A stretch of DNA of 64,000 nucleotides from Candidatus Helarchaeota archaeon (GCA_019058315.1 JAHPZH010000003.1:41669-105668); one strand, 5' to 3'. Counted from the first letter of the stretch, positions 10,680 through 55,047 are shown. The notes: generated from the letters alone by a model not told the origin. Program-made: numbers and translations.

Positions 10680-10694
10680 TATAACACCGTTATA
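10680..10694. promoter_or_regulatory. Palindromic operator TATAACACCGTTATA
   Basis: On the minus strand it directly follows cgaaat-gttaatata (BRE/TATA-like); upstream of DUF166. Confidence 0.8.
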
Positions 10695-10838
10695 TATTAA
10701 CATTTCGGTTGAATAAAATTCAAGAAATGGTGAGGTTTAAAATAACATAATTTATAATAAAAATAACGTAATTTTTAACGAATTTAACTTAAATTATAAA
10801 AAAATATATAAGTTTTAATTTATTTAAAAAAAATAAAT

Positions 10839-11621
10839 TTAAGGAAGAATTACGGCATCGACAAATAATTCATATTCTTCATCTTCAGATAGATCATGCA
10901 CTCTAACTTTTTCTAAAGTATTAGTTCCTGATATTTCTAATAGTGCGGATTGTCTAAGTACTTTTACATCAGATATTTTTAATTTTGATTTTAAATCTTG
11001 TTCTGCTAAAATTGTTTTTAATGGAGTTATAAAAATAACCCGTCCAGTTTTTTCGGTTAGATCTAAGGCTAATTGAATACTTTTTTCACCATTTTCAACA
11101 ACTAACACCCTTTTACCTTGAAATTCATCGAGATTATCATAGGTTCTATATACTCCTTTATCAATAAATTGGTTTAATCCAATTATATCTGTGGGTTGAC
11201 TCACTTTACAAGTACCAGTAGCAGGTATAACGGACTCTATCTTTGTACCAGTTCTATAATTATTAATGGCTTCATGAAGTGCATCTGCAGCTAAATTTGA
11301 ACAATGCATTTTAATTGGTGGTAACCCTTCTAATTCGTCAGCTACATTCTGTCTAGTAATTTTCATAGCCTCATCTAAGGTTTTTCCTTTAGCCAATTCT
11401 GTTACCATACTAGATGTTGCTATTGCACTTCCACAGCCAAAAGTTTTAAATTTAATATCAACAATTTTATCATCTTTGACTCTAATATAAATATCCATTA
11501 AATCTCCACAGACAGGATTACCAACTCTTCCGACTGCAACATCATCTCCTTCTAATGTTCCAACATTACGAGGATTTCGGAAATGTTCCATAACTTTTTT
11601 TGAATATTGAGTGGATTTCAT
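10839..11621 (-). CDS. iscU: Fe-S scaffold IscU/NifU with a C-terminal degenerate thioredoxin-reductase-like domain
   Basis: GNPVCGD, FGCGSAIA, LPPIKMHC; extra ~120 aa (KGVYRTY...GKRVLVVENGEKSIQLALDL...VDAVIL). Confidence 0.9.
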   Translation of the reverse strand: MKSTQYSKKVMEHFRNPRNVGTLEGDDVAVGRVGNPVCGDLMDIYIRVKDDKIVDIKFKTFGCGSAIATSSMVTELAKGKTLDEAMKITRQNVADELEGLPPIKMHCSNLAADALHEAINNYRTGTKIESVIPATGTCKVSQPTDIIGLNQFIDKGVYRTYDNLDEFQGKRVLVVENGEKSIQLALDLTEKTGRVIFITPLKTILAEQDLKSKLKISDVKVLRQSALLEISGTNTLEKVRVHDLSEDEEYELFVDAVILP

Positions 11622-11624
11622 AAT

Positions 11625-12800
11625 TTAATCAACCTCCTTTTCCTTTTCTGCTAAAGGTGATAACTTTCTTAATCTTTCAACTATATTTGGTAAAACTTCA
11701 ATTAATTTATCAATATCCTCCCTTTTAGTCCACTTCCCCATAGTTACTTCTAAAGAACCATGTGCTTCCTCATGGGTTAAACCTGTGGCAATTAAAGTAT
11801 GAGAGGGTTCTAAAGTTTTAGAAGTACATGCTGAACCCGAAGCAATTGAAATACCTTCATCTTTTAAAGATAATAGTAGTGATTCTCCCTCTACATAATC
11901 AAATCTAAAATGAGCATTATTTGGTAAACGTTTTTTCGGATGACCATTCAAATGGGATTTAGGAATTCTTTCTAAAATACCTTTAATTAAAATATCTCTT
12001 AATTCAATTAATCTTTTACTTTCTGATTCCATATTTTTTTGAGCAATTTCAGCGGCTTTTGCCATCCCGACTATAGATGGTATATCTTCAGTTCCAGACC
12101 TTAACCCTCTTTCTTGACCTCCCCCAATTACAATTGGATTAACATAAATTCCCTTTCTCATATACAATACGCCTAGACCTCTAGGCCCATAAATGTCATT
12201 AGAGGAAAGACTCATTAAATCAATACCATCTTTAACTACATCAATAGAAATTTGACCTTCTGCAGCAACTGCATCTGTATGGAACGTTATATTATGTTCT
12301 TTTGCTATTTTAGCAATTTCTGCAATAGGTTGGATAGTCCCAATTTCATTGTTAGCATATTGAATAGATATCAAAATTGTATCATCTCTGATTTTTTCCT
12401 TAAGTTTATCCAATCTAACAATACCATAGAAGTCAACAGGGACTTTTGAAACTTCAAATCCATTTCTTTCTAAATATTTTGCAATATTATGAATAGATAT
12501 GTGTTCGATTTCAGATATTATAATATGTTTTCCCTTTTTCTTATTCCTCATCACATAACCAATTATTGCGAGATTATTTGACTCAGTCGCACCTGAGGTG
12601 AAAATTATCTCATTATCTTTTTCAGCATTTATGAATTTAGCAATTTTTTTCCTACTATCTGCTAAAGCTTTCGTTGCAATATCTCCATCTGAATGTAAGG
12701 AGGAAGAATTTGCAAATTTTTCTTGAAAATATGGTTTCATTGCCTCGAATACCTCTCCGTCAACAGGTTTCGATGCTTGATAATCTAAATATATTGTCAT
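11625..12800 (-). CDS. iscS: Cysteine desulfurase IscS/NifS
   Basis: IYLDY, FTSGATESNN, NNEIGTIQ, ASGSACTS catalytic Cys loop; the usual PLP-binding SxHK motif reads SSND here. Confidence 0.9.
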   Translation of the reverse strand: MTIYLDYQASKPVDGEVFEAMKPYFQEKFANSSSLHSDGDIATKALADSRKKIAKFINAEKDNEIIFTSGATESNNLAIIGYVMRNKKKGKHIIISEIEHISIHNIAKYLERNGFEVSKVPVDFYGIVRLDKLKEKIRDDTILISIQYANNEIGTIQPIAEIAKIAKEHNITFHTDAVAAEGQISIDVVKDGIDLMSLSSNDIYGPRGLGVLYMRKGIYVNPIVIGGGQERGLRSGTEDIPSIVGMAKAAEIAQKNMESESKRLIELRDILIKGILERIPKSHLNGHPKKRLPNNAHFRFDYVEGESLLLSLKDEGISIASGSACTSKTLEPSHTLIATGLTHEEAHGSLEVTMGKWTKREDIDKLIEVLPNIVERLRKLSPLAEKEKEVD

Positions 12801-12901
12801 TACCCATTTACCTCTAAAGTTACTATTGTATATATTGTATAATTATAATAAAAAATTGTTTTTTAAAATTCATTTCATTAAAAAAATAAAAAAATGATTT
12901 G

Positions 12902-13264
12902 TTAAAACCATAATACGCCATCAGATTCTAAAACTAGGTCGTTTAATGTGGCAGCACCGACGATTTTGACACCTGGGATTAATTCAACTTTATCCCAACC
13001 TAACATTCGCTTTGATGCTTCACATACAAAGATTTCAATTCCCATTTCTAAACACTTATCTAGCATTTCTTTTACGGATGGAAAACTACCTAATTTTATC
13101 TTCTCAGCTTCTCCTGGTTTTAAAATTCTTAATGCAGTTCCTAAATAATATATTTTTGGTTCAATATCCATAGCTTTTGCAGTTTGTGCTAAAACAAGTG
13201 GTGAATATTGGCGTTCAGGATCGTGGCTAGTTTGAACATACAATAATTTTTTATGATCTGGCAT
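12902..13264 (-). CDS. DsrE-family sulfurtransferase-like protein
   Basis: IFVCEAS Cys motif, VGAATL, ~120 aa. Confidence 0.8.
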   Translation of the reverse strand: MPDHKKLLYVQTSHDPERQYSPLVLAQTAKAMDIEPKIYYLGTALRILKPGEAEKIKLGSFPSVKEMLDKCLEMGIEIFVCEASKRMLGWDKVELIPGVKIVGAATLNDLVLESDGVLWF

Positions 13265-13275
13265 ATATTTAACTC

Positions 13276-13515
13276 CTATTCCTTTTTTCTGAAATAGAAA
13301 ATTAATTCATCACCATCTTTAATAAAATCTAAAATTTCGGTGTTAGTTCTTTTAGCCCAGCGATGCAGATCCTCATCTGCAGCTGGATCATCAGCAATTA
13401 CTTTTAAAATTTTTCCTACTTCAAGAGTTTCCATTAAATTTCGTGTCTCAAATAGGGGTTCGGGACAATATAAACCCCGTGTATCTAATTCTTCGTCATG
13501 TTTTATATCTCCCAA
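13276..13515 (-). CDS. tusA: Sulfur carrier TusA family
   Basis: LDTRGLYCPEP, ADDPAA; TTG start with ggagg RBS. Confidence 0.9.
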   Translation of the reverse strand: MGDIKHDEELDTRGLYCPEPLFETRNLMETLEVGKILKVIADDPAADEDLHRWAKRTNTEILDFIKDGDELIFYFRKKE

Positions 13516-13600: not shown

Positions 13601-13615
13601 TATAACGCTGTTATA
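13601..13615. promoter_or_regulatory. Palindromic operator TATAACGCTGTTATA
   Basis: Minus strand reads cgaaac-atttaaaa then the operator; upstream of tusA-dsrE-iscS-iscU. Confidence 0.8.
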
Positions 13616-23501: not shown

Positions 23502-24443
23502 TTATTGAGAATTTTTTATCATTTCATTCAATAAAACTTTATTTTTTTCAGCGATTTCTTCTGGAACTGTGACTAAATATTCTTCAGGTTGTTTTTCTAT
23601 CACGTATTTTATAGATTCCAATGTATTTTTTTTCATGTTATAACAGATTGGTTTGTCATGTGCCTTATATATTTTCTTATTTTTGGTTTCTCTTTCTAAT
23701 TTCTGAAGTAAGCCAATTTCTGTGGCGATAATAAATTCATCAAATTCCGAATCCACAACAAATTTAAACATTTGACTTGTAGAGCCAATAAAATCAGTAA
23801 TTTCTTGAACTTCTGGACGACATTCAGGATGGGCAAGAATTAGTGCCTTTGGATGGTCTTTTTTAACATTTTTTATGTATTTAGCATCAAATTTTTCATG
23901 TACTATACAACATCCTTTTAAAGGAATTGGATTGACTGTGATATTTAATTTAGATTGAATATAATAAGCCATATTCTTGTCAGGTGCAAAATTTATAAGA
24001 GGTTTGTTGATTAATTTTGCAATTTTTAAAGCATTAGCAGAAGTACAAATATAATCTGCTTGTGCTCTAGCAGCTGCAGTGGTGTTTATATACATCATTA
24101 AGGGGATTTCGGGATTAATAGTTTTTATCTTTTTCATTAATTTCTCAGGTGCACCTCTTGCCATTGGACAGAAAGCCTCATAATTCCCAATATAAACCTT
24201 CTTTGTGGGGTTTAATATTGCCCCAGATTCAGCCATGAACCATACTGCTGCAAAAATCATATTATTTGCTGAATCCGCCTTTTTTGCAAATTCTGCCAAC
24301 TTGAGACTATCAGCACAAAAATCTGCGATTACTTGAATTTCAGGAACTTGATAATTATGAGCAAGAATAAGAAAATCATGTTTTTCCTTTAGTTTTAAAA
24401 TTTCATTTTGTAAATTCTTAATTTTTTCAGGAAAATTTGACAT
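23502..24443 (-). CDS. nadA: Quinolinate synthase
   Basis: ILAHNYQ, FMAE, CPMA, YINT, CTSANA, CIVH, AHPEC, CYNMK. Confidence 0.95.
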   Translation of the reverse strand: MSNFPEKIKNLQNEILKLKEKHDFLILAHNYQVPEIQVIADFCADSLKLAEFAKKADSANNMIFAAVWFMAESGAILNPTKKVYIGNYEAFCPMARGAPEKLMKKIKTINPEIPLMMYINTTAAARAQADYICTSANALKIAKLINKPLINFAPDKNMAYYIQSKLNITVNPIPLKGCCIVHEKFDAKYIKNVKKDHPKALILAHPECRPEVQEITDFIGSTSQMFKFVVDSEFDEFIIATEIGLLQKLERETKNKKIYKAHDKPICYNMKKNTLESIKYVIEKQPEEYLVTVPEEIAEKNKVLLNEMIKNSQ

Positions 24444-24564: not shown

Positions 24565-24579
24565 TATAACAGTGATAAC
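24565..24579. promoter_or_regulatory. Operator variant TATAACAGTGATAAC upstream of the HTH regulator
   Basis: Follows a cttata TATA-like box; suggests autoregulation. Confidence 0.65.
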
Positions 24580-24612: not shown

Positions 24613-25032
24613 ATGGTGAATTATATGTTATTTCCTTGTGAAATGATTGTCAAAAAAATATTGCCCGCATTTAGAGCATATTTAGTAAAACAATTGTATG
24701 AAAAATATAAAATGAAACAAAATGATATTGCAAAATGTTTAGGAATTACACAACCCAGTGTTAGCTTGTATCTTTCAGGCGAAAGGGGAGGGTTTGAAGA
24801 TATTTTTAAATCTGAAGAAGTAGCTAAAAATATAAAGGTACTCGATGAATTATCTGAAAAGTTAGTAAATAAAAAATTATCAGAACAAGAATTAATGGAA
24901 GATATGTGTCAATTATGTTCACTTTTAAGAAAAATGGGGGCATACTGTGAAATTCATGGTGAATTGGACAAGAACCGTAAGGTTCCTTGTGGATTATGTG
25001 ACGTATGTTTTGGGGAGAAAGAAAAGCTTTAA
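24613..25032 (+). CDS. XRE-type HTH transcriptional regulator (COG2522/ThiR-N-like) with Cys-rich C-terminus
   Basis: PCEMIVKKILPAFRA, QNDIAKCLGITQPSVSLYLSGERG HTH; CQLC...CEIH...CGLCDVC. Confidence 0.88.
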   Translation: MVNYMLFPCEMIVKKILPAFRAYLVKQLYEKYKMKQNDIAKCLGITQPSVSLYLSGERGGFEDIFKSEEVAKNIKVLDELSEKLVNKKLSEQELMEDMCQLCSLLRKMGAYCEIHGELDKNRKVPCGLCDVCFGEKEKL

Positions 25033-25106: not shown

Positions 25107-25140
25107 TATTACACTGTTATACTGAGATAACATTGTTATA
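25107..25140. promoter_or_regulatory. Tandem operators TATTACACTGTTATA (25107-25121) and GATAACATTGTTATA (25126-25140)
   Basis: Downstream of aaaaac-ttttata (BRE/TATA); upstream of the operon ending in cysE-cysK. Confidence 0.85.
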
Positions 25141-25201: not shown

Positions 25202-26002
25202 GTGAATAAGATGACAATGGTAAAAAGAAAAATCATAAAAATTGATGACGAATTATGTACTGGATGCGGTAGTTGTATTCCAGCTTGTCCTGAGCAAGCA
25301 TTAGAAATTGTTGATACGCCAAAGGGAAAAAAGGCAAGGATTATAAAAGATCTCTACTGCGATGGACTTGGTGCTTGTCTTGGTGATTGTCCGATTGGTG
25401 CCTTAACAATTGTGGAAAAAGAAACAGACCCATATGATGATGATGCGACCATTGAGCGGATAAAAGAAGTAGCACCCGAAATGCTAGCAACTCATATAAA
25501 ACATATGGAAGAACATACAACTGAATTGGCAGAACAACATACACATGAAATTCATCCAGAGATACATACTTGTACTTCATCTAGAGTTCTTGATTGGACA
25601 AATGAAGAAACTTCAACTGGAACAACAGCGAGAATTGATTCACAATTGAGACAATGGCCTGTTCAGCTCCATTTAGTTCCACCAAATGCTCCATATTTCC
25701 AAAATGCAGACTTAGTAATAGTTGCTGATTGTGTTCCGTTTTCCTATGCCAACTTTCACCACGATTTTATAAAAGGGCACCCCATTGCTGTAGGTTGTCC
25801 AAAACTGGACGATGCAAAAGCTTATGTTGAAAAAATTGCACAAATCATTAGTGTTTCAAATTTAAAGAGCATTCAAGTCGTTCATATGGAAGTTCCTTGT
25901 TGTTTTGGTCTTGTGCAGATTGTTCACCAAGCATTAAAGAAAGCAGGAAAATCAGTCCCAATTAAAGAAATTACAATAAGCATTAAGGGACAAAAAAAAT
26001 AA
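25202..26002 (+). CDS. 4Fe-4S dicluster ferredoxin-like protein with C-terminal Cys-containing domain
   Basis: CTGCGSCIPACP, CDGLGACLGDCP, QWPVQL, ADC, GCPKLD, MEVPCC. Confidence 0.88.
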   Translation: MNKMTMVKRKIIKIDDELCTGCGSCIPACPEQALEIVDTPKGKKARIIKDLYCDGLGACLGDCPIGALTIVEKETDPYDDDATIERIKEVAPEMLATHIKHMEEHTTELAEQHTHEIHPEIHTCTSSRVLDWTNEETSTGTTARIDSQLRQWPVQLHLVPPNAPYFQNADLVIVADCVPFSYANFHHDFIKGHPIAVGCPKLDDAKAYVEKIAQIISVSNLKSIQVVHMEVPCCFGLVQIVHQALKKAGKSVPIKEITISIKGQKK

Positions 26003-26030
26003 CTCTTTTTTTTTCTTTAGAGGTGAAAAT

Positions 26031-27086
26031 ATGAGTAGTTTTAATAATGCAGGTAAATTAACACCAGAAGATTTTGACAAATATATTTTTCCATATTTAG
26101 GTGCTTCAAATAAAAATGTATTAGTCGGACCTAAACATGGAGTAGATGCGGCAGTGGTTGATCTCGGTGATAAATTAATGGTTGTAGCAGAGGATCCAAC
26201 ATATGGACTTCCCTCTTTGGGATTTAAAAAATTTGGCTGGGCAATAGTCCATATTTGTTGTTCAGATGTAGCATGCCTTGCAGCAAAGCCAGAACTTATG
26301 ACCATATGTCTATTATTACCTCCAGAAACTCAAAAATCTGTATTACAAGATGTTATGACTACAATGAATACCGAATGTAAAAAATTGGGGGTTTCTTTGA
26401 TAGGAGGACACACTGGAGTAATACCTGGAATTACTTTTCCATTGAATGGCGGCTGTACAGTTTTTGGCTTTACAACTAAAGATAAATTAATAGTACCTAG
26501 TGGTGCTAGGGTAGGTGATAAAGTGATAGTCACAAAAGGTGCAGCCGTAGAAGCCGCTTCCATTTTAGCTCTGCAATATCCTAGTGGGCTTGAAAAAAAA
26601 TTTGGAACTGATCTAGTAAAAAATGCCCAGGAAATGTTTTATGATATGTCTGTAGTTAAAGATGCTATGGTTACAAGAGAGATTAATGGAGTTAGTGCGA
26701 TGCATGATGCAACAGAGGGTGGAGTTTTAGGTGGAATTTATGAAGTTGGTAATGCGAGCAATGTAGGTATGAAAATATATAAAGACCAAATCATATTAAC
26801 TGATGAAGCTAGTAAAATTTGTGATTTCTTTGAGATCGACCCTTATTATTCAATAAGTGAAGGTACTTTAGTTATTACCGTCAGTGAAAATGCTGCTGAA
26901 GATGTTCTAAAAGCTCTTAAAAAGGAAAAAATTAACGCATCCATTGTAGGAGAATGTGTTGATAAGAATCAAGGTATGCAACTCTTTGAAACAGATCGTC
27001 AGATAGGCACATTTAGATTCCCAGAAACAGATCCTTTTTGGGCAGCATATTTCAAAGCGATTGAGTATTCTCAGGAGATAAAATAA
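26031..27086 (+). CDS. AIR synthase-family protein (PurM/HypE/ThiL/SelD superfamily)
   Basis: GVDAAV, EDP, SDVA, GGHT, MHDATEGG, ISEG. Confidence 0.85.
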   Translation: MSSFNNAGKLTPEDFDKYIFPYLGASNKNVLVGPKHGVDAAVVDLGDKLMVVAEDPTYGLPSLGFKKFGWAIVHICCSDVACLAAKPELMTICLLLPPETQKSVLQDVMTTMNTECKKLGVSLIGGHTGVIPGITFPLNGGCTVFGFTTKDKLIVPSGARVGDKVIVTKGAAVEAASILALQYPSGLEKKFGTDLVKNAQEMFYDMSVVKDAMVTREINGVSAMHDATEGGVLGGIYEVGNASNVGMKIYKDQIILTDEASKICDFFEIDPYYSISEGTLVITVSENAAEDVLKALKKEKINASIVGECVDKNQGMQLFETDRQIGTFRFPETDPFWAAYFKAIEYSQEIK

Positions 27087-40392: not shown

Positions 40393-40407
40393 TATAACGA
40401 TGTAATA
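40393..40407. promoter_or_regulatory. Operator TATAACGATGTAATA
   Basis: Minus strand reads cgaaa-tttattaa then the operator; ~200 bp upstream of the activator gene. Confidence 0.7.
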
Positions 40408-41766: not shown

Positions 41767-41781
41767 TATTACATTGTAATA
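41767..41781. promoter_or_regulatory. Operator TATTACATTGTAATA (perfect palindrome)
   Basis: 22 bp upstream of the larE ATG. Confidence 0.8.
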
Positions 41782-43529: not shown

Positions 43530-43557
43530 TATCACATTGTTATATTACAATGTTATG
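43530..43557. promoter_or_regulatory. Overlapping tandem operators TATCACATTGTTATA (43530-43544) and TATTACAATGTTATG (43543-43557)
   Basis: Immediately after gaaaa-ttatttaaa (BRE/TATA); between the divergent DUF2099 and ThiI-like genes. Confidence 0.85.
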
Positions 43558-45643: not shown

Positions 45644-45658
45644 TATGACATTGTTATA
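45644..45658. promoter_or_regulatory. Operator TATGACATTGTTATA
   Basis: Upstream of the solute-binding-fold gene (minus strand). Confidence 0.8.
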
Positions 45659-45768: not shown

Positions 45769-45783
45769 AATTACATTGTAATA
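45769..45783. promoter_or_regulatory. Operator AATTACATTGTAATA
   Basis: 35 bp upstream of the thrC-like ATG. Confidence 0.75.
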
Positions 45784-45817: not shown

Positions 45818-47074
45818 ATGTCAAAGAGAATAATTGGATTAGAATGTCCGGAATGTGGTATTATTTACCCACAGGAATTAACTCCCATTTGTAAAGAATG
45901 CTGGGGACCCTTAAAAATAAAATATGATTATGAAATAATAAAAGATAAAATTTCTAAAGAAAAACTAAAAAATCGTCCTTTTAATCAATGGAGATATATT
46001 GAATTATTACCCATTGAGGATTTAACTAAAATAATTTCACTTAATGATGGTGGTACTCCATTAATAAGATGTAAAAATTTAGAGACTGAATTAGGTCTTA
46101 AAGAATTGTATGTAAAAAATGATACCATTAATCCTACTTTATCATTTAAAGATCGTCCTGCATCAGTTGGAATATCTAAATGTAACGAATTAGGTATTAA
46201 TACTGTTGGTTGTGCCTCAACAGGAAATTTAGCCGCATCAACTGCCGCCCATGCCGCTAAAGCTGGGTTTCCTTGCTATATTTTTGTTCCAGCAAACATT
46301 GAGTATTCAAAGATTACACAAACAGCAATTCACGGAGTAAATATTATTGGTGTTAATGGAACATATGATGCTGCAAATCAGTTAGGTATTCTTGCAGCTG
46401 AAGTTTTTAAATGGGGGCTTTTAAATATAAACGTACGTCCCTATTACACGGAGGGCTCAAAAACAATCGCTTTTGAAACTTGTGAACAGTTGAATTGGGA
46501 ATCACCTGATAACATAATCATTCCAATGGGAAGTGGTGCATTATTATGTTCGGTCAATAGAGCTCTAATAGATCTATATAAAATTGGTTTTATTGAGAAA
46601 AATAATATCAAAATTTCAGGAGCCCAACCATCTGGATGCTCCCCAATTGTAACGTCCAAAAATACGAAATCTGATATTTTTCCAATTGAAAATCCAGACA
46701 CCTTAACAAAAAGTTTAGCGATAGGAAATCCAGCTAGCGGTTACGAGGCTATTAATGTAATAAATTCTACAAATGGTTGTGCAATTGCGCCTTCTGATTC
46801 TGAAATCACAGATGCGATAAAACTCTTAGCAAAAAGAGAAGGAATTTATGCGGAACCTGCAGGTGCAATTCCGTTAGCTGCTCTAATAAATTTAATTCAG
46901 TCAGGCGATATTTCCAAAGATGAAAGCGTTGTGTTACTTGTAACAGGAAATGGTTTCAAGGCTCATCAAACAGTAACGAATTTAATTTCAGAAATACCCA
47001 TTATCGAACCAACTTTAGATGCATTAGAGAAATATACAAACAAAAAGGAGGCGATAGCATTTGCCAAAAATTAA
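45818..47074 (+). CDS. thrC: Threonine synthase-family PLP enzyme (sulfur-carrier-associated paralog type)
   Basis: N-terminal CPEC/CKEC, NPTLSFKDR, CASTGN, NINVRPYYTEGSKT, TGNGFK; overlaps moaD. Confidence 0.85.
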   Translation: MSKRIIGLECPECGIIYPQELTPICKECWGPLKIKYDYEIIKDKISKEKLKNRPFNQWRYIELLPIEDLTKIISLNDGGTPLIRCKNLETELGLKELYVKNDTINPTLSFKDRPASVGISKCNELGINTVGCASTGNLAASTAAHAAKAGFPCYIFVPANIEYSKITQTAIHGVNIIGVNGTYDAANQLGILAAEVFKWGLLNINVRPYYTEGSKTIAFETCEQLNWESPDNIIIPMGSGALLCSVNRALIDLYKIGFIEKNNIKISGAQPSGCSPIVTSKNTKSDIFPIENPDTLTKSLAIGNPASGYEAINVINSTNGCAIAPSDSEITDAIKLLAKREGIYAEPAGAIPLAALINLIQSGDISKDESVVLLVTGNGFKAHQTVTNLISEIPIIEPTLDALEKYTNKKEAIAFAKN

Positions 47075-47345
47075 ATTTGTATTTTTTTCATCGCTCCATG
47101 ATTTAACAAATACAGAGTCAATTGAATTAGAAATAAATGGAACAGTAGAAAAAGCGTTGGAAAAGATTTATGATATTTATGGAGATGTATTTAAAAATAG
47201 AATTTTAGATAAAAATACGGGAAAAATTAAGAAATACGTCATAGTTGCTATTAATCGAAAAGATATTCGCCATCTCAATGGATATGATACAAAATTAAAT
47301 GAAGCAGATGAAATTTCAATACTTCCCGCTGTTGCAGGAGGCTAA
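47061..47345 (+). CDS. moaD: MoaD/ThiS/SAMP ubiquitin-like sulfur carrier
   Basis: Beta-grasp pattern ending DEISILPAVAGG (C-terminal GG); aaggagg RBS with TTG start. Confidence 0.92.
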   Translation: MPKIKFVFFSSLHDLTNTESIELEINGTVEKALEKIYDIYGDVFKNRILDKNTGKIKKYVIVAINRKDIRHLNGYDTKLNEADEISILPAVAGG

Positions 47346-47371
47346 AATCTAAATTTGGTGATTTTTAATAA

Positions 47372-48025
47372 ATGATATCTCTTGAAACTAAAATAAATGA
47401 AATTATAAAGATTTTAGATACCAAATTTTCTCCTGTTGGAGTTAAAATTATACAAAATAATGATCAACATATCGATAATTCTTTTCAAGAAGTGAATGAA
47501 AATAAGAGATTTTGCTATTATGTACGTCAAGCTGCGTTAGGAAAGAAATTTATTATTAAGAATGATAACAAACTTGAGTGTAAGACCCCATATTATTGTT
47601 TAGGATTTAAAGAACCAAAATATGGTAATTTTGATTATAGAATTAGACCAGCTATTACAAAGACTGTTTTAATAGCTCCATTAAATAAATTTAAAATGAA
47701 CGTAGATAGCGTTGTTTTTATTATAAACGCAAAACAGTCAATGCTATTAGTTGATGCTCTACGAAGAATTCAAAAGAAGAAGATACAGGCAACTTTTGGA
47801 GTGTCTATGTCTATTTGTGGGGAAATTGTTGCGAATTCTATTGTGAATAAAACCCCTAGTTTATCTCTTCTTTGTTATGGGGCTCGAATTTATTCCGATT
47901 ATAAAAATAATGAACTTGCTCTAGGAATTCCATTTGTATTGTTTGATTCTATCTATGAAAATTTGAAAAAAATTGAGAAGTTACAGGAATTAGAGGAAGA
48001 ATTAAAAAATTTAGAGGTGAAATAA
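47372..48025 (+). CDS. DUF169-family protein
   Basis: PVGVK, RFC, ICGE, SLLCYGAR, ELALGIP. Confidence 0.78.
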   Translation: MISLETKINEIIKILDTKFSPVGVKIIQNNDQHIDNSFQEVNENKRFCYYVRQAALGKKFIIKNDNKLECKTPYYCLGFKEPKYGNFDYRIRPAITKTVLIAPLNKFKMNVDSVVFIINAKQSMLLVDALRRIQKKKIQATFGVSMSICGEIVANSIVNKTPSLSLLCYGARIYSDYKNNELALGIPFVLFDSIYENLKKIEKLQELEEELKNLEVK

Positions 48026-48834
48026 TGTTTGGGTTTACAGAAGAAGAAATAAGAAGATATAGCCGTCAAATTGTATTAAAAGGTGTAGGAGGAGTAGGCC
48101 AGAAAAAATTAAGAGAATCATCAGTTCTTGTAGTAGGAGCTGGTGGTCTTGGTTGTCCTGCTGCTTTTTATCTGACAGCTGCAGGGGTTGGAAAATTAGG
48201 AATTCTAGATTTCGATGTTGTAGATATAAGTAATTTACAAAGACAAATATTACATTTTACTAAAGATGTTGGAAAGCCAAAGGTAATTTCAGCTGCAGAA
48301 AAATTAAGAGAATTAAACCCAAATATTACTATTGACACTATTCAAACTCAATTGACTCCCAAAAATGCAAGGGAAATAATAAAACCTTATGATTATGTTA
48401 TTGATGGATCTGATAATTTTGCGACAAAGTATATTATAAATGATGCTTGTATTATAGAAGATATTCCATTCACAATGGCAGGGATTTTAGCTTTTAATGG
48501 TCAAATTATGACAGTAATCCCTAAAAAATCTGCATGTTACCGTTGTGCTTATTCTGATCCTCCACCCCCAGGAGTAGTCCCAAGTTGTTCACAAGCGGGA
48601 GTTTTTGGAGCAATACCAGGTATTGTTGGATCTATTCAGACTAGTGAGGCAATTAAATATCTACTTGGTTTTGGGGAACTTCTAACTAATAAGATATTAG
48701 TGGTTGATATAGGAAGTTTGATATTTCAATTAGTTACAGTGAAAAAGAGTGATGATTGTAAAGCATGTGGTAATGTTCCTGAAGATCTTTTAAATGTTTT
48801 TGATTATTATCAAGGAGAATCATGTGAAATATAA
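48025..48834 (+). CDS. moeB: MoeB/ThiF/UbaA E1-like adenylyltransferase (no rhodanese domain)
   Basis: RYSRQI, GAGGLG, DISNLQRQ, DGSDNF, CYRC, CSQAG, CKAC. Confidence 0.93.
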   Translation: MFGFTEEEIRRYSRQIVLKGVGGVGQKKLRESSVLVVGAGGLGCPAAFYLTAAGVGKLGILDFDVVDISNLQRQILHFTKDVGKPKVISAAEKLRELNPNITIDTIQTQLTPKNAREIIKPYDYVIDGSDNFATKYIINDACIIEDIPFTMAGILAFNGQIMTVIPKKSACYRCAYSDPPPPGVVPSCSQAGVFGAIPGIVGSIQTSEAIKYLLGFGELLTNKILVVDIGSLIFQLVTVKKSDDCKACGNVPEDLLNVFDYYQGESCEI

Positions 48835-48840
48835 AATTAG

Positions 48841-49086
48841 GTGATTAAAATTACAAAAAATGATATTAGGAAAATAGATTTAAAGGGTGAGGTTTGTCCA
48901 TATACGTTTGTTTTGACCAAACTAAATCTGGAGGAAATGCAACCAAATCAGATTTTAGAAGTGATTGTTGATTATCCACCAGCGGCTGAGAATATACCTC
49001 GCAGTATAAAAGATCAAAATTTAGGTGAAGTTTTGAGTGTAGATAAATTAAGTAACGTAGAATGGAGAATCAAGATAAAAAAATAA
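48841..49086 (+). CDS. tusA: Sulfur carrier TusA family
   Basis: IDLKGEVCPYT, DYPPAAENIP. Confidence 0.88.
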   Translation: MIKITKNDIRKIDLKGEVCPYTFVLTKLNLEEMQPNQILEVIVDYPPAAENIPRSIKDQNLGEVLSVDKLSNVEWRIKIKK

Positions 49087-49134
49087 CAAACAAGATGAAA
49101 TATTGAAAAAAATAAAATATTGGAGAGTGATGAG

Positions 49135-49449
49135 ATGGCAAATGTGTTAATAATAATATCAAAAGAAAAATACCAATCTAACAAGACTCAGTTAGCTATA
49201 GAAATTTCAAAAAATATTCAAAATAAAGGGAATTCTACAACAGTTTATCTTGTTGAAGATGGCGTGTATTTAGGTTGGGACAGTAGTATCAATGATTTAA
49301 TTAAAACAGGTATAATTGTGAAGGCTGACGAGTGGGATCTAAAAGCCAGAGGATTAAAAGGAAAGATTAATGAAAAAATTGAGATTAAAACTCCTAATGA
49401 TCTTTTTAACGAAGTAGCTGAGAATAGTGATAAGGTTTTATGGTTTTAG
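49135..49449 (+). CDS. DsrH/TusB-like protein
   Basis: YLVEDGVY, DLKARGL; no Cys. Confidence 0.75.
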   Translation: MANVLIIISKEKYQSNKTQLAIEISKNIQNKGNSTTVYLVEDGVYLGWDSSINDLIKTGIIVKADEWDLKARGLKGKINEKIEIKTPNDLFNEVAENSDKVLWF

Positions 49450-49460
49450 GAGGTAAATAT

Positions 49461-49856
49461 ATGGTAAAAACTTTAACATTTATTGTGACAAAAGGTCCTT
49501 ATTCCTCTGAAATTCCTTATACAGTCTTAAAACTAGTTAAAGCAGCTCGAAAAAAAAATGTGAATATTAATCTTTTCTTCTATCTTGATGGGACATTTAT
49601 TAGCCACCACAAACAATCTCCTGGTGATTACCCCAATGTTCAATATATAACCCATGATTTATTGAAAAAAGGTCTTTTAAATCCCAAAATAGATGCGATC
49701 GCATGCATTAAATGTACCCATGCTAGAGGAATTACACATGGAGACGATTCATTTAAAGAAGGTTCTGCTTACACATATGAAGGAGTTATTATTGGGGGAT
49801 TAGGCGATTTAGCAATCTGGCTTAAAAATAGTGATAAAACCATATTAATTAGTTAG
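49461..49856 (+). CDS. DsrE/TusD-like protein
   Basis: GPYSSE, FFYLDG, ACIKCTHARG, GGLGDL; aggaggt RBS before ATG 49461. Confidence 0.82.
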   Translation: MVKTLTFIVTKGPYSSEIPYTVLKLVKAARKKNVNINLFFYLDGTFISHHKQSPGDYPNVQYITHDLLKKGLLNPKIDAIACIKCTHARGITHGDDSFKEGSAYTYEGVIIGGLGDLAIWLKNSDKTILIS

Positions 49857-49867
49857 GAGATGATTTT

Positions 49868-50242
49868 TTGACAAAAGTGATTATAATCATAACAGATCCG
49901 CCTTATGGGGTAGAGAATGCTTATGGATTCTTGGCGGCTGCAGGAGCTTTAGCCACTATTCATGACACAAGTGTCATTTTTTCAGAAGCAGGAGTACTAA
50001 ATTCTCTTAAAAATCAAGATACTTCAGATTTCATTGAACTGGATAAAAAATATTTGGATATACCATCTCATGAATCAAAAATAAAGGAATTCAAAGAATT
50101 AGATATCCGATTTTTTGTTCATAAGGAGGCTTTAGATATACGAGGAATAAAAGATGGTGATATTATAGAAGATATAGAGAAACTATCAATCGATCAGATA
50201 ACGGACAAAATACTTGACAGTGATCAGGTGCTAATTATATAA
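49868..50242 (+). CDS. DsrF/TusC-like protein
   Basis: PPYG, FSEAGV, ALDIRGI; no Cys. Confidence 0.75.
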   Translation: MTKVIIIITDPPYGVENAYGFLAAAGALATIHDTSVIFSEAGVLNSLKNQDTSDFIELDKKYLDIPSHESKIKEFKELDIRFFVHKEALDIRGIKDGDIIEDIEKLSIDQITDKILDSDQVLII

Positions 50243-50263
50243 TTTTTTTACTAGTTGATAAAA

Positions 50264-50506
50264 ATGGTAACAAAGAACTTAGAAGTAAGTCTAATTATTG
50301 ATTCTCAAGGAAAAATTTGCCCCTATCCCCTAATTGAAGTAAAAAAAGCAATAAAGAAGTTATCATCTGGTGAAATATTAAAATTAATTACAACAGATCC
50401 TATATGTCCTGATAATGTTGATTCATGGTGTGAAACTACTGGAAATACTTTGATTCGAGTCGATAATCACGGAGATAAAATTGATATTTACGTAAAAAAA
50501 GGTTGA
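50264..50506 (+). CDS. tusA: Sulfur carrier TusA family
   Basis: IDSQGKICPYP, TTDP, WCETTGN. Confidence 0.9.
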   Translation: MVTKNLEVSLIIDSQGKICPYPLIEVKKAIKKLSSGEILKLITTDPICPDNVDSWCETTGNTLIRVDNHGDKIDIYVKKG

Positions 50507-50558
50507 TAGATTGTTGTGATTTTTCATTATAAGCTATTTTGAATTTTGAGCGAATTTT

Positions 50559-51677
50559 ATGCTATTAGATTATACAAAGTTAAAATTAAATTTATTAATT
50601 GATGGAGTTAATCCTGAAAATGAAAATTTAATAGGTAGAATGAGTGGTGCAGGGCCTACTGGAGGAAGATATTTTTTATTAGAAAATGGTTCATGTGTTA
50701 ATATTCCACTTTGGACGAAAAATTCAAAATATTCTAGGTTTTGGATAAAAAAATTTGATGATCAAAATAACTTATTTCAATTATTCGATGATAAGAAATT
50801 AATTACAACACTAAAATTAATTCCTAGACCTAAATTTTATGATTTAAACACTTCAGATAATATTAAAATGAGTAAAATTGCTATGTTACATGGAGAAAAT
50901 TGTCTTGCATCAACTATTTATCAAAAATGTATCTATTGGTCACAAGGAAAAGCTTGTGAATTTTGTGGAATTGAATTAAGTCTAAGGTCAAATTCAACTA
51001 TACTAGAGAAAACAGCTAAACAATTGTCCGAAGTTTTGGATAAAAGTATAAAGGAGGGAGTTTGTGAACATATGACTCTTACTACAGGGACTCCCAATAC
51101 TTCCGATAAGGGTGCAAAAAAATTCATGCCCATTTTGAAAGAATTAAAAAGGAAGTTTTCTGTTCCTATCCATATCCAACTTGAACCTCCAGAGAATCAG
51201 ATAATTATAGAAGATTTATATTCATCTGGAGCAGATACAATTGGAATTCATGCTGAAACTTTAGATCCTTTAATATTTCATAAAATCTGTCCAGGAAAAT
51301 CAGAAATTGGACTAAAAAAGTTTAAAGAAATATGGAATTACTCAGTAGAGATATTTGGTAAAGAACAAGTCAGTTCATATCTTTTATTGGGATTAGGTGA
51401 ATCTTTGGAATCACTTCAAAAAGGTGCACACTATCTTATAGAGCATGATGTGATTCCATATATTGTGCCAGTCCGTTCTATTTTAGAAACAAATTTCGAA
51501 AATGTTCAACAAAAAAATTTTCAACAAATATATAATCTATATAAAGATGTAAATAATCACTTAAAAAAGCATAATCTGGACCCTCGGCAAAATAAAGCAG
51601 GTTGTGTACGTTGTGGTGCATGTAGCATAATTACAGATTTTTACAACATAAAAATAGAATCGAAAAATGAAAATTAA
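50559..51677 (+). CDS. Radical SAM protein, MSMEG_0568/NitD-like (related to LipS1-type sulfur-insertion enzymes)
   Basis: GAGP, LHG, Cx8CxxC (CIYWSQGKACEFC), LTTGT, EPP, CPGK, QVSSY, C-terminal AGCVRCGACS. Confidence 0.82.
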   Translation: MLLDYTKLKLNLLIDGVNPENENLIGRMSGAGPTGGRYFLLENGSCVNIPLWTKNSKYSRFWIKKFDDQNNLFQLFDDKKLITTLKLIPRPKFYDLNTSDNIKMSKIAMLHGENCLASTIYQKCIYWSQGKACEFCGIELSLRSNSTILEKTAKQLSEVLDKSIKEGVCEHMTLTTGTPNTSDKGAKKFMPILKELKRKFSVPIHIQLEPPENQIIIEDLYSSGADTIGIHAETLDPLIFHKICPGKSEIGLKKFKEIWNYSVEIFGKEQVSSYLLLGLGESLESLQKGAHYLIEHDVIPYIVPVRSILETNFENVQQKNFQQIYNLYKDVNNHLKKHNLDPRQNKAGCVRCGACSIITDFYNIKIESKNEN

Positions 51678-51753: not shown

Positions 51754-51768
51754 TATTACAGTGTAATA
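51754..51768. promoter_or_regulatory. Operator TATTACAGTGTAATA (perfect palindrome)
   Basis: Downstream of a tttata box at ~51730; upstream of 51781. Confidence 0.8.
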
Positions 51769-52327: not shown

Positions 52328-53464
52328 TTATAATAAGCTAATTTCAAAAATTACTCTTGCATATTCATATTTTGAATTTAATAAATTAAGAACTCTACTT
52401 ATAAACTTATATAGATTTTTAGAATATTGAAGTTTTTTGCGCTCATGAATAACCAAATTTTCGTAAATTCTTTCTCTTGTAGCATCAGGTTCATAATTAT
52501 GATCATCTAACCAATGGGAGGAGACTTTACAAACCTTTATAACATCTTCATCTGGAAATAATTTTCTATCTTTAAATGTGTCTTTATAAGTATTTATGGA
52601 TACACCCACCCTCTTTATGTAATAAGCGATTCCATGGGCATATCTACATAAACTTATAATATTTGAAGTCACTCTTGGATCTCTCATATTTGCACACTCT
52701 AGAATAGCAGCCCATGGGCTATTTGGATCCTCACTTTCTGGTATATTGTTAACTATTGCGATATTTATTATATCACTGAGATCAACATCAAAACCTCTTT
52801 TTAATTTCTTTTTAATTATATTTTTAAGATTTGATCCCTCCAAATACCCACCTGACCCAAAATTAAGACTTTGGAGGAGGTCATTAGACGCTATAAGTAT
52901 TGTAGACTTCCTTTTATTAGTCCATAGATCTTTCCATGTGACTTTCTTTTCCCATTCTCTTGTTATTTTATTTTTTTTCCAGCCAGTTTTCTTTAAGACA
53001 TATTCTAATAAAGTAGGACTTGGAAACCAAAAATCTATATCATCAGTTGATCTCTTTCGTCTCCAATCTCTTGTAGTTATATCCTCTAAATATAATCTAA
53101 TAGCACCTCTCAAAAAATTAAGTTGATTATTATCTTTTAATAATTCGGCAGCAATTCGGTGAAATTTATTAGCTGGAACCTCGGAAATTTCTTTAATTTT
53201 GTTTAAAATAATTTTTGCTTCATTAGCAGCAATATCAACAGGTACATTACCATCTGATGGATATTCTCTTGAACCTCCCTCTAGGAATTTTTGAAATAAT
53301 TCAAAGTCATCCTCGGGTATAACATATTTTGGATTATCGAATATTTCACTGGTAAAAACATAATGTGTATAGCCAAATTCATCATCATATTGTTTAATAA
53401 AATCGATAGTTCTTAGATTATCATTATAATCTACTGCGTTAGATTTATAACTCCAAACTTGCAT
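52328..53464 (-). CRISPR. Not a CRISPR feature; placeholder type corrected by the CDS entry with the same coordinates
   Basis: No repeat-spacer structure; region is protein coding. Confidence 0.
52328..53464 (-). CDS. Hypothetical protein, possible nucleotidyltransferase fold
   Basis: 378-aa ORF; FLRGAIRLYL...RSTDDIDFW resembles the R-x-T-x-D-I-D NTase motif. Confidence 0.6.
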   Translation of the reverse strand: MQVWSYKSNAVDYNDNLRTIDFIKQYDDEFGYTHYVFTSEIFDNPKYVIPEDDFELFQKFLEGGSREYPSDGNVPVDIAANEAKIILNKIKEISEVPANKFHRIAAELLKDNNQLNFLRGAIRLYLEDITTRDWRRKRSTDDIDFWFPSPTLLEYVLKKTGWKKNKITREWEKKVTWKDLWTNKRKSTILIASNDLLQSLNFGSGGYLEGSNLKNIIKKKLKRGFDVDLSDIINIAIVNNIPESEDPNSPWAAILECANMRDPRVTSNIISLCRYAHGIAYYIKRVGVSINTYKDTFKDRKLFPDEDVIKVCKVSSHWLDDHNYEPDATRERIYENLVIHERKKLQYSKNLYKFISRVLNLLNSKYEYARVIFEISLL

Positions 53465-53540
53465 TTTAGTTTCTTTTCCCCAAATATCAGGGTCTTATGT
53501 ATTATCTTTAGGATTTAATAGAAAAAAAAATTTAAAAACT

Positions 53541-54827
53541 TTATTTGATAAAATATGCATATTCGATTAATCTGTTAATTTTTCTAAATGATTTTTTATC
53601 TAATTTATTTTTTAGAGACTCCAATAATCTACGTCGAAATTCTATGCCTAAATGTGCAATTTCATCTCCAGGTTCTAAAAGACCTTCCAGGAGGGGCTGA
53701 ATATTTTTAGTATATTCTTCACTAAGTTCTTTATCTTGAAGAATAAGAGCCATTGTATCAATTAACAAATCCATAAATCCACTATGATATACCAGATGAT
53801 GCATTTTTTGGGAATTTTGGATTATTTCAAAGATTCTACTACATTTTCTTTGGTATTTTAATAAAAATGAAGCTGTATAATCAGATTTCTTCTTTGCTTT
53901 AATTAATGTTTCCGCAGCAAGTCTACCACTCATACGTGCATGCCAAATACCTTCATATGTAAAACGGTCAATAAATCCAGCCGCATCTCCAACTAGAATT
54001 ACTTTATTCCCGTATATATGTTCAAGAATACGATCAGGAATTGGTGCAGCCCATATATGCTTTCCTTCGAACTCAATCGGTTTAGCGCCTTCAAGTTTGG
54101 GACGAATGATTGGATGGTGCTTTAAAACTTCTTGAAAGTGTTTGATATCAACATTTTTATTGCACATTCCTACAGATACACCCTCTTTTTTAGTAAAAAT
54201 CCAAGTATATCCATGAGAAGCAATTTGTGAATTAAAGAATAATTCATATACTCCACCACCAAATCTTTCTTCTACTACATGACTGGGTAAATAATATTCA
54301 GCCTGAATCGCTTGTTCAATTTCTAATGGTCGATCAATTTTTAATTTTCGATGTAATTTATTACCATGGACTCCTGTTGCAATAACAATTGCGTCCCCCT
54401 TTATCCGCTTTATATGTGAATTTGATTTTACTTCAACCTCAACGAAATCCTTGTGACATGAAATATTAAATACCTCAGAATTAGTTTCAATTATCGCTCC
54501 ACTTCTTATCGCTTTTTCTCTCAAATAACAATCTAATCGATTTCGGTATGTAAGTTGCCCAATTTTTGTTGAATTATTATCACTTTTTAAATCTACAAAT
54601 TCAGTAGGACCATGTAATATTAAATGATCAACGTCCCTTTCAATAATTTCCGGAGGTAACGAGCCGAAATCTAATTCGTTATGCCACATTAAACCCCCAG
54701 CACATGCTTTATATCGATTATTATCACCTTTTTCAAATAAAATGACATCCACACCATTTTTAGCTAAAAATTCTGCACAAGTTGCTCCTCCAGGTCCCCC
54801 ACCAGCTATAATTACATCATATTTCAT
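53541..54827 (-). CDS. Geranylgeranyl reductase-family FAD oxidoreductase
   Basis: GGGPGG, KACAGG, GYTWIF, LVGDAAG, TYEGI. Confidence 0.9.
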   Translation of the reverse strand: MKYDVIIAGGGPGGATCAEFLAKNGVDVILFEKGDNNRYKACAGGLMWHNELDFGSLPPEIIERDVDHLILHGPTEFVDLKSDNNSTKIGQLTYRNRLDCYLREKAIRSGAIIETNSEVFNISCHKDFVEVEVKSNSHIKRIKGDAIVIATGVHGNKLHRKLKIDRPLEIEQAIQAEYYLPSHVVEERFGGGVYELFFNSQIASHGYTWIFTKKEGVSVGMCNKNVDIKHFQEVLKHHPIIRPKLEGAKPIEFEGKHIWAAPIPDRILEHIYGNKVILVGDAAGFIDRFTYEGIWHARMSGRLAAETLIKAKKKSDYTASFLLKYQRKCSRIFEIIQNSQKMHHLVYHSGFMDLLIDTMALILQDKELSEEYTKNIQPLLEGLLEPGDEIAHLGIEFRRRLLESLKNKLDKKSFRKINRLIEYAYFIK

Positions 54828-54839
54828 AAATAAACCTCA

Positions 54840-54881
54840 TATTACATTGTTATATTTACATTGTTATATGACAATGTTATT
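54840..54881. promoter_or_regulatory. Triple tandem operator (54840-54854, 54854-54868, 54867-54881)
   Basis: tattacattgttata / atttacattgttata / tatgacaatgttatt, filling the gap between gaaaa-tacttatata (minus strand) and the RBS of 54827. Confidence 0.9.
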
Positions 54882-55024
54882 ATATAAGTATTTTCTTTAT
54901 TGTAACAAATCAGAAAATTAGGGAAAAGTTGCTCTTTGCTTTTTATTGTTAATTATTTGAATTATTGATAGATACTGAAATCTCATTAATATGATGCAAT
55001 ATTTTATATATGATAAAGTATTAT

Positions 55025-55047
55025 ATATTATAACACTGTTATAATAT
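55025..55047. promoter_or_regulatory. Extended perfect operator ATATTATAACACTGTTATAATAT
   Basis: 11-bp arms around a central C; follows the aaagtattatata TATA-like element on the plus strand. Confidence 0.85.

Follow-up and report, generated by a model that had tools for sequence, protein, structure and literature searches.

A 15-bp palindrome at the promoters of a sulfur and iron-sulfur gene island in a Helarchaeota genome is the predicted operator of a cysteine-rich helix-turn-helix protein

What controls the sulfur-handling genes that crowd one part of a Candidatus Helarchaeota genome? The question is raised by a 64,000-nt stretch of DNA (C11:41669-105668, hereafter the window) from a 5.79-Mb genome of 12 contigs and ~30% GC, in which the palindrome TAT(A/T)AC-N3-GT(A/T)ATA recurs at the promoters of a 45-kb gene island. 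An original prediction, made from this DNA, had listed 17 copies of the palindrome and attributed them to one repressor-type regulator of sulfur-trafficking and iron-sulfur (Fe-S) genes. All 17 coordinates were found to carry the motif, 15 of them as strong sites and two (24565 and 54854) as weak ones. We computed the sites, their clustering, their position in promoters, and the conservation both of the site together with its candidate regulator and of the core targets. From these results, the palindrome is probably the operator of a small Cys-rich helix-turn-helix (HTH) protein encoded within the island itself, at 24613..25032 on the plus strand. A single repressor-type regulator over a clustered set of sulfur and Fe-S genes, as first proposed, is thereby supported at the level of sequence.

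The exact palindrome TATWACANTGTWATA was observed five times in the window compared to 0.02 occurrences expected from dinucleotide-preserving shuffles, and with up to two mismatches it was observed 22 times compared to 4.05 expected, a count reached in none of 100 shuffles. A symmetrised scoring matrix made from the 17 window sites assigned scores of 15.0–20.5 to 15 of them. Site 54854 scored 12.4, and site 24565 scored 10.0 because its left half-site alone is good. The G/C-containing core AC-N3-GT was the most conserved part of the operator. As a control we used the same matrix reversed but not complemented, which leaves its composition unchanged. At a score of at least 14 there were 33 matches genome-wide, 15 of which fell in the window, compared to 36 and none for the control; at a score of at least 16 the corresponding numbers were 18 and 13, compared to 15 and none. 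The densest 64 kb of the genome held 16 real matches and 3 control matches, and 9 of the 12 genomic copies of TATWACNNNGTWATA lay inside the window. The motif is not enriched over the genome as a whole; it is concentrated to an extreme degree on the promoters of the island. With 15 strong sites at about a dozen promoters, the window is the largest array of this operator that we encountered. By a crude coding mask, 28 of the 33 genomic matches (counting two window sites reclassified after start correction) were intergenic, compared to an intergenic share of 17% of the genome.

The ~18 matches scoring at least 14 beyond the window were at background level, and their neighbouring genes had no common theme (a luciferase-like monooxygenase, a rubredoxin-reductase-like/acyl-CoA dehydrogenase pair, the transcription factor TFB, a P-type ATPase and an HdrA-like protein were among them). 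We rejected these matches as regulon members, since their number equals that given by the reversed matrix, and the motif accordingly does not mark unrelated genes of the genome above background. A scan of the window against Rfam at gathering thresholds returned no RNA family, and the sites therefore belong to no known RNA element.

All of the sites are intergenic once two gene starts are corrected, as had been claimed. The longest open reading frames (ORFs) of the DUF166 and NMT1/THI5-like genes overlap sites 10680 and 45644, respectively; the next ATG of the former (10661) and a downstream ATG of the latter (45606) each give a normal protein. The positions from –9 to –1 ahead of the first operator of each promoter consisted almost wholly of A and T, and 12 of the 15 promoters had T at –6. 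These A/T-only stretches, which abut nearly all copies, resemble archaeal TATA boxes (tttaaaa, tttaaat, ttattaa, cttatat), and several follow purine-rich elements of the cgaaa type that resemble the TFB-recognition element (BRE), so that the BRE/TATA-like arrangement described earlier was recovered, by eye and from the positional A/T profile. Most promoters had 0–39 nt from the end of the operator to the start codon; at nine of them this gap was 0, 12, 12, 18, 22, 26, 33, 34 and 37 nt (one of the 12-nt gaps, at the GGR-like gene, is counted from the proximal of its three sites). It was longer at four others: 80 nt at a 266-aa ferredoxin-domain gene, 85 nt at tusA, 86 nt at a 395-aa ferredoxin-domain gene and 204 nt at a BcrAD-type ATPase (activase) gene. 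Sites were arrayed with 1–2 bp of overlap (13–14-bp spacing) at the thiI/DUF2099 and GGR-like promoters, and two sites stood 19 bp apart at the cysteine operon. An operator so near the start codon would not lie upstream of the TATA box and would instead cover the region from the TATA box to the transcription start, which is where characterised archaeal repressors act. We infer the repressor sign from this promoter geometry.

The genes downstream of the sites do handle sulfur for the most part, as had been stated. Pfam and NCBIfam identified IscS/IscU, three TusA proteins, DsrE and DsrH, CysE/CysK, ThiS/ThiF, LarE, a ThiI-like protein and HdrBC, along with DUF166, DUF169 and DUF2099. The genes that lie between the site-bearing units (fprA, ferritin, rubrerythrin, PIG-L, glycosyltransferases, CDP-alcohol transferase, nadE and methyltransferases) had no site scoring 12 or more before them, again in agreement with the original prediction, which had named fprA, ferritin/rubrerythrin, nadE and the lipid genes as free of the site.

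The candidate regulator (24613..25032, plus strand, 139 aa as called) has an HTH and a Cys-rich C-terminal half and is encoded by a single-copy gene. Its homologs begin MLFPCE, so that the true start is probably at 24625, which gives 135 aa. Only weak HTH matches were obtained in Pfam and NCBIfam, with HTH_60 below threshold; some homologs carry a precomputed PF01381 (XRE/HTH_3) assignment, and those in Helarchaeota metagenome-assembled genomes (MAGs) are named 'transcriptional regulator'. An alignment of 21 close homologs showed invariance of an N-terminal Phe-Pro-Cys-Glu (containing Cys9), of the HTH LGITQPSVSLYLSGERGG and of Cys99-x2-Cys102. A profile search collected 705 representatives at E-values up to 1e-10, mostly of 110–140 aa, and among 58 of these Cys102, Cys112, Cys126 and Cys129 were at least 90% conserved. 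A conserved His accompanies Cys9, Cys99, Cys102, Cys112, Cys126 and Cys129 in the family, which Atlas clusters place in several archaeal phyla, apparently Methanobacteriota and Thermoproteota among them. Compared by BLASTP with a ThiN-fused protein of 270 aa encoded on contig L029, the regulator aligned through its first ~105 residues to the N-terminal region of that protein (E 1e-10, 32% identity over 112 residues).

The AlphaFold model of the monomer was all-helical (mean pLDDT, a per-residue confidence score, 85.6). Searches of the PDB by sequence, of the PDB with Foldseek, and with VIA-align in its wide form returned no solved full-length relative. Structural matches were confined to the ~45-residue HTH (DeoR, SorC, XRE, sigma region 4), and full-length fold matches to Bcl-2-like helical bundles (Z 5.2–5.6) were rejected because scores in this range are usual for helical models. 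Prediction of a homodimer gave an ipSAE of 0.62 compared to 0.00 for the best of three controls; among proteins of solved structure, 20 of 30 that are pairs of one chain and 1 of 23 that are single chains attain the mark applied to this score. The dimer runs shared at least 77% of their contacts, with partner pLDDT of at least 76, and the most confident contacts included Cys9-Cys9', Cys102-Cys9' and those of Cys99 with residues 7' and 8'. The model thus favours a dimer, as a palindromic site requires, and would place invariant cysteines at the interface; it supports this arrangement but is not proof of it.

The site and this protein occur together well beyond the window. Regulator homologs were found in the related genomes G001 (a fragment at a contig end), G003, G004, G005 and G006, and sites scoring 16.7–16.8 lay ~80–110 bp upstream of them in G003, G005 (two loci) and G006. 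These strong sites occupy the same position as the weak site 24565. In the related genomes of the order Helarchaeales the regulator gene is followed by nadA, whose product, quinolinate synthase, is an Fe-S enzyme, and a regulator-nadA pair in a Lokiarchaeota-labelled MAG has TATAACAGTGTAAAA (score 16.2) 109 nt ahead of it; the pairing was seen at loci L002, L005, L007, L027 and L029. Three distant contigs of 35–47% GC also had sites beside regulator homologs, scoring 18.9, 14.7 and 17.5. On the 47%-GC contig TATAACACCGTTATA lies between divergent nadA and regulator genes, and the regulator there falls in a 90%-identity cluster with a single named member, from a Theionarchaea MAG. On the 45%-GC contig TATGACGTTGTCATA lies between the regulator and an operon of DUF169, SepSecS-Aminotran_5 and thioredoxin genes, and on the 35%-GC contig AATAACAGTGTTATA lies ~50 nt upstream of the called regulator start.

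Sampling of 201 Asgard genomes found the regulator family in 138, and in none of the 43 genomes of families f4 and f5. At 29 regulator loci of other Asgard families, 15 loci held 18 sites scoring at least 14, compared to a single match of the control matrix. Ten sites (scores 11.3–18.9) lay 15–61 bp upstream of the regulator, and four lay ~1 kb upstream, ahead of a cysK-regulator pair. Neighbours of the regulator at these 29 loci were cysK (8), a thiF-like gene (5), cysE-cysK plus larE (1) and the 266-aa ferredoxin-domain gene (1). The partner of the regulator is nadA in the Helarchaeales relatives, the Lokiarchaeota-labelled MAG and the distant 47%-GC contig, and cysK or thiF in other Asgard families. 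Judged from this association, the protein encoded at 24613-25032 very probably binds the palindrome.

Conservation of the site upstream of orthologs, on which the original prediction also depended, was clearest at the tusA-dsrE-iscS(-iscU) operon. The site stands ahead of the orthologous operon in four genomes of the order (G001, G003, G005 and G006), in all of which regulator and site are both present. Five complete genomes of family f4, from the same class, have no regulator; their dsrE(-iscS) orthologs are 75–82% identical, the six 3.3-kb loci that carry them contained no site scoring 9 or more, and their genome-wide counts of the exact motif equalled the control counts. The site was also found ahead of the ortholog of the 395-aa ferredoxin-domain gene in one genome (G005). 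In another (G003, locus L018 on contig C196) a triple site lies between cysE-cysK and a 59%-identical ortholog of a 378-aa orphan protein of the window, which on this comparison is a predicted conserved member of the regulon. Besides the regulator itself (with nadA or cysK), at which the site recurs in many genomes, the conserved core of the predicted regulon takes in tusA-dsrE-iscS, cysE-cysK and a small number of further genes. The extensive periphery around this core is particular to the present genome, or at any rate gained no support from others.

The composition of the periphery appears to vary among genomes. Strong sites in G003 (contig C15, L048) and G006 (contig C100, L050) lie between a gene for a 107–110-aa protein and a pair of genes resembling CoA-transferase subunits, orthologous in the two genomes, and a triple site in G005 (contig C36, L049) lies ahead of genes resembling an FAD-linked oxidase and a CCG-type Fe-S protein; these likenesses come from N-terminal sequence only.

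Predicted binding, the sign of regulation and the signal can be combined into the following scheme. The protein would bind as a homodimer, with one HTH per half-site, and the stretch from the TATA box to the transcription start would be covered by a single dimer or, at the cysteine, thiI/DUF2099 and GGR-like promoters, by two or three in an array. Coverage of this stretch would block the transcription machinery, which makes the protein a predicted repressor. The single site at 41767 would serve both of the divergent promoters that flank it. The regulon in this genome would be essentially the 45-kb island, and its scope would include cysteine synthesis (cysE/cysK), the persulfide relay (TusA with DsrE/H), the Fe-S scaffold (IscS/IscU) and a ThiS/ThiF thiocarboxylate operon, as well as the sulfur-inserting PP-loop enzymes (LarE and the ThiI-like protein), an ATP-driven HgdD/HdrBC reductive module and several orphan proteins. 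The conserved cysteines and histidine, three of these cysteines meeting at the predicted dimer interface, may report on the state of the sulfur or Fe-S supply and release the repressor when it runs short; a bound metal or Fe-S cluster, or else thiol/persulfide chemistry, could serve as the means.

Several observations weigh against this scheme. The promoter of the regulator gene carries, in this genome, a match of half-site quality only (score 10.0). The matrix was trained on the window sites, so that circularity enters the window scores to some degree; it does not touch the counts of the exact pattern, the reversed control or the matches in other genomes. The TATA and BRE assignments were made by eye plus the A/T profile in intergenic DNA of 24% GC. 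The Pro-Cys and CxxC-x9-CxxH elements are also present in the aligned ThiN-fused paralog on L029, and this common Cys/His motif may therefore be a structural metal site of the whole family and not a sensor. Finally, in five related genomes the nearest homologs of the DUF2099, DUF166, longin-like, GGR-like and ThrC-like proteins had no site adjoining their genes: the DUF166 homolog loci in G001, G004 and G006 lacked an adjacent site (one match of 12.2 lay 833 nt upstream in G006), as did the DUF2099 orthologs in G005 and G006, and a lone match lay 236 nt upstream of a longin paralog. Several of these homologs may be paralogs, so that the lack of a site weakens membership and does not refute it. 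The assignment of orphan genes to the regulon thus held in part: the sites are present in this genome, but the DUF166, DUF2099, longin-like and GGR-like loci of relatives have no adjacent site, and for these genes, the thrC-like operon and a 42-aa ORF the putative assignment is drawn from this genome only.

Of the readings that compete with the preferred one, we consider it extremely unlikely that the sites are not regulatory at all, being A/T-rich palindromes that arose by chance, TATA boxes placed back to back, or what is left of a repeat or mobile element. Genome-wide the motif is no commoner than its reversed control (33 compared to 36 at a score of at least 14) and its TATA...TATA arms do resemble TATA boxes; the excess of 15 over none in the window and of 16 over 3 in the densest 64 kb, the conservation of the G/C-containing core, and the same 15-mer on contigs of 41–48% GC beside the same protein family and before orthologous genes all argue against such an origin. 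The flanks of the sites are not repeated, so the palindrome is not the terminus of a mobile element. Could the palindrome be a real operator that belongs to a different factor, with the Cys-rich HTH protein merely a member of the regulon? The weak site at the protein's own promoter would fit, and annotation covered part of the small genes of the window. We nevertheless think this quite improbable, as the site accompanies homologs of the HTH protein in dozens of genomes whose neighbouring genes otherwise differ, and where the protein is lacking, the promoters of orthologous targets lack the site as well. Furthermore, the recognition region of the HTH is nearly invariant across the family, matching the invariant operator, and no other recognisable DNA-binding gene was present among the window genes scanned.

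If the HTH protein does bind the sites, it might act as an activator or a dual regulator, for which the four promoters with operators 80–204 nt from the start codon would leave space. We regard this as unlikely, because the gaps of 0–37 nt at nine promoters are too short to accommodate, downstream of the site, both a TATA box and a further ~25 nt, and because an A/T-only TATA-like stretch lies directly 5' of the operator in nearly all cases, the four long-gap promoters included. Granting the preferred reading, that the protein represses from these sites, three accounts of its signal can be drawn up, and taken jointly we give them an even chance. Either an Fe-S cluster held by the interface cysteines, as in IscR, or release by persulfidation or disulfide formation, as in CstR, SqrR or SurR, would suit the invariance of Cys9, Cys99 and Cys102, the near-invariance of Cys112, Cys126 and Cys129, their clustering at the predicted dimer interface, and a regulon of Fe-S, persulfide-relay and cysteine genes. 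Alternatively, the Cys/His site may hold a structural zinc, with the signal coming from a small molecule or, as in the CymR-CysK complex, from a partner protein, for instance CysK; this would suit the retention of Pro-Cys and CxxC-x9-CxxH in the ThiN-fused paralog and the position of cysK as the commonest neighbour of the regulator. Sequence analysis cannot separate these accounts, and the fold search returned no solved full-length relative to decide among them. Candidates for the sensor are persulfidation, an Fe-S cluster held by the protein, a partner (CysK, for example) and the additional CxxC that the stand-alone form has at its C-terminal end.

The closest relationship detected was to ThiR, reportedly the archaeal regulator of thiamine genes. 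The N-terminal ~105 residues of the regulator align with the ThiN-fused L029 protein throughout the Pro-Cys, the HTH and the CxxC-x9-CxxH; this protein was taken as ThiR-like from its HTH-plus-ThiN architecture and not from comparison with a characterised ThiR. Both regulators are archaeal, and both are inferred to repress promoters by binding palindromes. In contrast to ThiR, the regulator described here has no ThiN domain (no Pfam ThiN match), is only 135–139 aa long and ends in a short tail with an extra CxxC. Its predicted regulon also consists mainly of sulfur, cysteine and Fe-S genes, not thiamine genes, with thiN, the NMT1/THI5-like gene and the ThiI-like gene as site-bearing genes among them. 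The absence of a ThiN domain sets the protein apart from ThiR, and judged by the alignment it is a stand-alone form paralogous to the ThiR DNA-binding domain. At three Asgard loci with ThiN-fused paralogs (L059, L061 and L065; frames of 331–375 aa), the homolog is followed by ThiN and an AIR-synthase-like gene, and none of the three carried the 15-bp operator. Many Asgard genomes hold a second family member within an open frame of about 305–330 aa.

Other likenesses are of function or layout. IscR (an Rrf2 protein with a [2Fe-2S] cluster) and SufR would be comparable in being small, Cys-rich, apparently autoregulated repressors, here with a predicted dimer, that occupy palindromes at the iscS-iscU promoter and at Fe-S-related genes. 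The regulator has neither an Rrf2 (PF02082) nor a SufR-type domain in Pfam or NCBIfam (to E 0.01 in NCBIfam), its operator differs, and its predicted regulon also takes in cysteine synthesis and the persulfide relay. SurR of Thermococcales is an ArsR-type winged-HTH protein with a CxxC redox switch and the motif GTT-N3-AAC. It would be analogous as an archaeal regulator that answers to sulfur through a cysteine switch and has a short palindrome with an N3 spacer, whereas the core here is AAC-N3-GTT within TATAAC-N3-GTTATA, with the half-sites in the opposite order, and no ArsR-type domain was found in the regulator by Pfam or NCBIfam. In Bacteria, CymR-CysK, CysB and CstR/SqrR exert master control over cysteine or sulfur-trafficking genes, and the CstR regulon has carriers of the TusA, DsrE and rhodanese types. 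The regulator, whose gene is often paired with cysK, may be their analog in controlling cysteine and sulfur trafficking; no sequence relationship to CymR, CysB, CstR or SqrR was detected.

Literature searches for an archaeal cysteine or Fe-S regulator returned bacterial work only, and a search on COG2522 returned one irrelevant paper; consistent with the regulon having been called undescribed, the literature searched held no publication on it. We know of no archaeal transcription factor described as controlling cysteine synthesis, persulfide trafficking and Fe-S assembly. A specific protein, a 15-bp site and a list of promoters make archaeal sulfur control directly testable. The pairing of site and protein is conserved across Asgard archaea and on distant contigs that represent one further archaeal class or more, so a single experiment would guide the prediction of regulons in a wide range of uncultured lineages. 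Shared control would also place the widespread families DUF166, DUF169 and DUF2099 and the 378-aa orphan in a sulfur-handling context, for most of them from this genome only, and the new candidate targets include the HgdD/HdrBC module, the ThiS/ThiF-ThrC-like operon, LarE, the ThiI-like protein and, as putative peripheral members, DUF166 and DUF2099. More tentatively, and with the balance tilted somewhat against it, the stand-alone Cys-rich paralog of the ThiR DNA-binding domain may be a widespread archaeal master regulator of the sulfur and Fe-S economy that senses Fe-S or persulfide status via a cysteine cluster between its subunits. If so, it would be a functional counterpart of bacterial IscR, SufR and CymR built on an unrelated protein, its regulon would have grown to about a dozen promoters in this Asgard genome, and the HgdD/HdrBC module, the ThiS/ThiF-ThrC-like thiocarboxylate pathway and the longin-like protein would fall to sulfur metabolism.

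The individual sites are described here in order along the window. The operator at 10680..10694 (score 18.9) lies 18 nt upstream of the corrected start of the DUF166 gene (9843..10661, minus strand; Pfam DUF166, E 1e-59), which is site-bearing in this genome only. Operator 13601..13615 (18.9) abuts the BRE/TATA-like cgaaac-atttaaaa ahead of the tusA-dsrE-iscS-iscU(fusion) operon (10839..13515, minus strand; Pfam), a conserved core target. The weak operator 24565..24579 is situated between the divergent regulator and nadA genes, and regulon membership of this nadA (quinolinate synthase, 23502..24443, minus strand; Pfam NadA) is uncertain. The pair at 25107..25140 (19.9 at 25107 and 17.5 at 25126) follows a ttttatata box upstream of the cysteine operon (25202..29460, plus strand), which according to Pfam and NCBIfam encodes a ferredoxin-domain protein, an AIR-synthase-related protein (HypE/ThiL/SelD-like), ThiN, a CysE-like hexapeptide transferase and a CysK-like PALP protein. 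The stand-alone ThiN of this operon (27087-27686) is a gene separate from the regulator.

Operator 39327..39341 (18.3) touches the annotated ATG of the first HGD-D gene in an operon of three HgdD-type (HGD-D) subunits, an HdrC-like protein and an HdrB-like (CCG) protein (34239..39326, minus strand; Pfam). Operator 40393..40407 (17.6) follows cgaaa-tttattaatta upstream of the BcrAD/BadFG-type ATPase gene (39400-40188, minus strand). The 204-nt gap between them (40189-40392) holds no ORF and no Rfam family, and may be a long leader or an unannotated element. The operator at 41767..41781 (18.5), with TATA-like boxes on both sides, separates larE (41804-42610, plus strand; NCBIfam LarE, E 5e-91) from the divergent 395-aa ferredoxin-domain gene (40493-41680, minus strand). 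Two overlapping operators at 43530..43557 (17.3 and 16.1, offset by 13 bp) separate DUF2099 (42625-43485, minus strand) from a divergent gene for a ThiI-like PP-loop ATPase with an NFACT-R_2 domain (43601-44593, plus strand).

Between operator 45644..45658 (18.0) and the NMT1/THI5-like gene (44647-45606, minus strand; start corrected) are 37 nt, and operator 45769..45783 (15.5) is 34 nt upstream of the thrC-like gene that heads a ten-gene operon (45818..51677, plus strand). According to Pfam and NCBIfam, this operon encodes a ThrC-like PALP protein, a ThiS-like protein, DUF169, a ThiF/MoeB-type E1, TusA, DsrH, DsrE, DsrE, TusA and a radical SAM protein of the MSMEG_0568 family. Operator 51754..51768 (19.2) lies 12 nt upstream of the gene for a 179-aa protein without a family (51781-52320, plus strand), the one earlier called longin-like. 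Three abutting operators at 54840..54881 (19.1, 12.4 and 15.0; offsets of 14 and 13 bp) precede the gene for a GGR-family FAD protein (53541-54827, minus strand; NCBIfam GG-red-SF), the nearest being 12 nt upstream. Downstream of it in the same unit (52328..54827) is the gene for the 378-aa protein (52328-53464, minus strand), for which Pfam and NCBIfam gave no family and the ESM Atlas gave low recognition and virus-labelled hypothetical clusters only, an uninformative result. The best-scoring operator, 55029..55043 (20.5), is 26 nt upstream of the 42-aa ORF (55070-55198, plus strand), which had no homolog in six related genomes and two weak paralogs (48% and 38% identity) in its own. This operator might instead drive a transcript antisense to a 62-aa ferredoxin-like gene (55220-55408) towards OsmC.

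A few further matches and genes were observed in and around the window. At C11:37684, 4 kb upstream of the window, an intergenic TATGACAATGTTATA (score 18.0) lies ahead of the genes for a rubredoxin-reductase-like flavoprotein and an acyl-CoA dehydrogenase and may be a leftward extension of the island. A weak 18th match in the window, TATAAAGGTGTTATA at 32307-32321 (score 11.6), lies 10–22 nt upstream of the likely ATG of a UPF0047 (YjbQ-like) gene and could be a degenerate operator or a chance occurrence. Of the four tRNA-Cys(GCA) genes, the one at C3:475741-475816 is preceded at a distance of 26 nt by TATAACATTATTATA (score 12.5), which as a link to the regulon is suggestive only. Near the left end of the window (1069-4407) are genes for two adjacent 550-aa proteins without a Pfam family; a 55%-identical paralog is encoded at C5:734048-735688, with a match scoring 15.7 upstream that is probably background.

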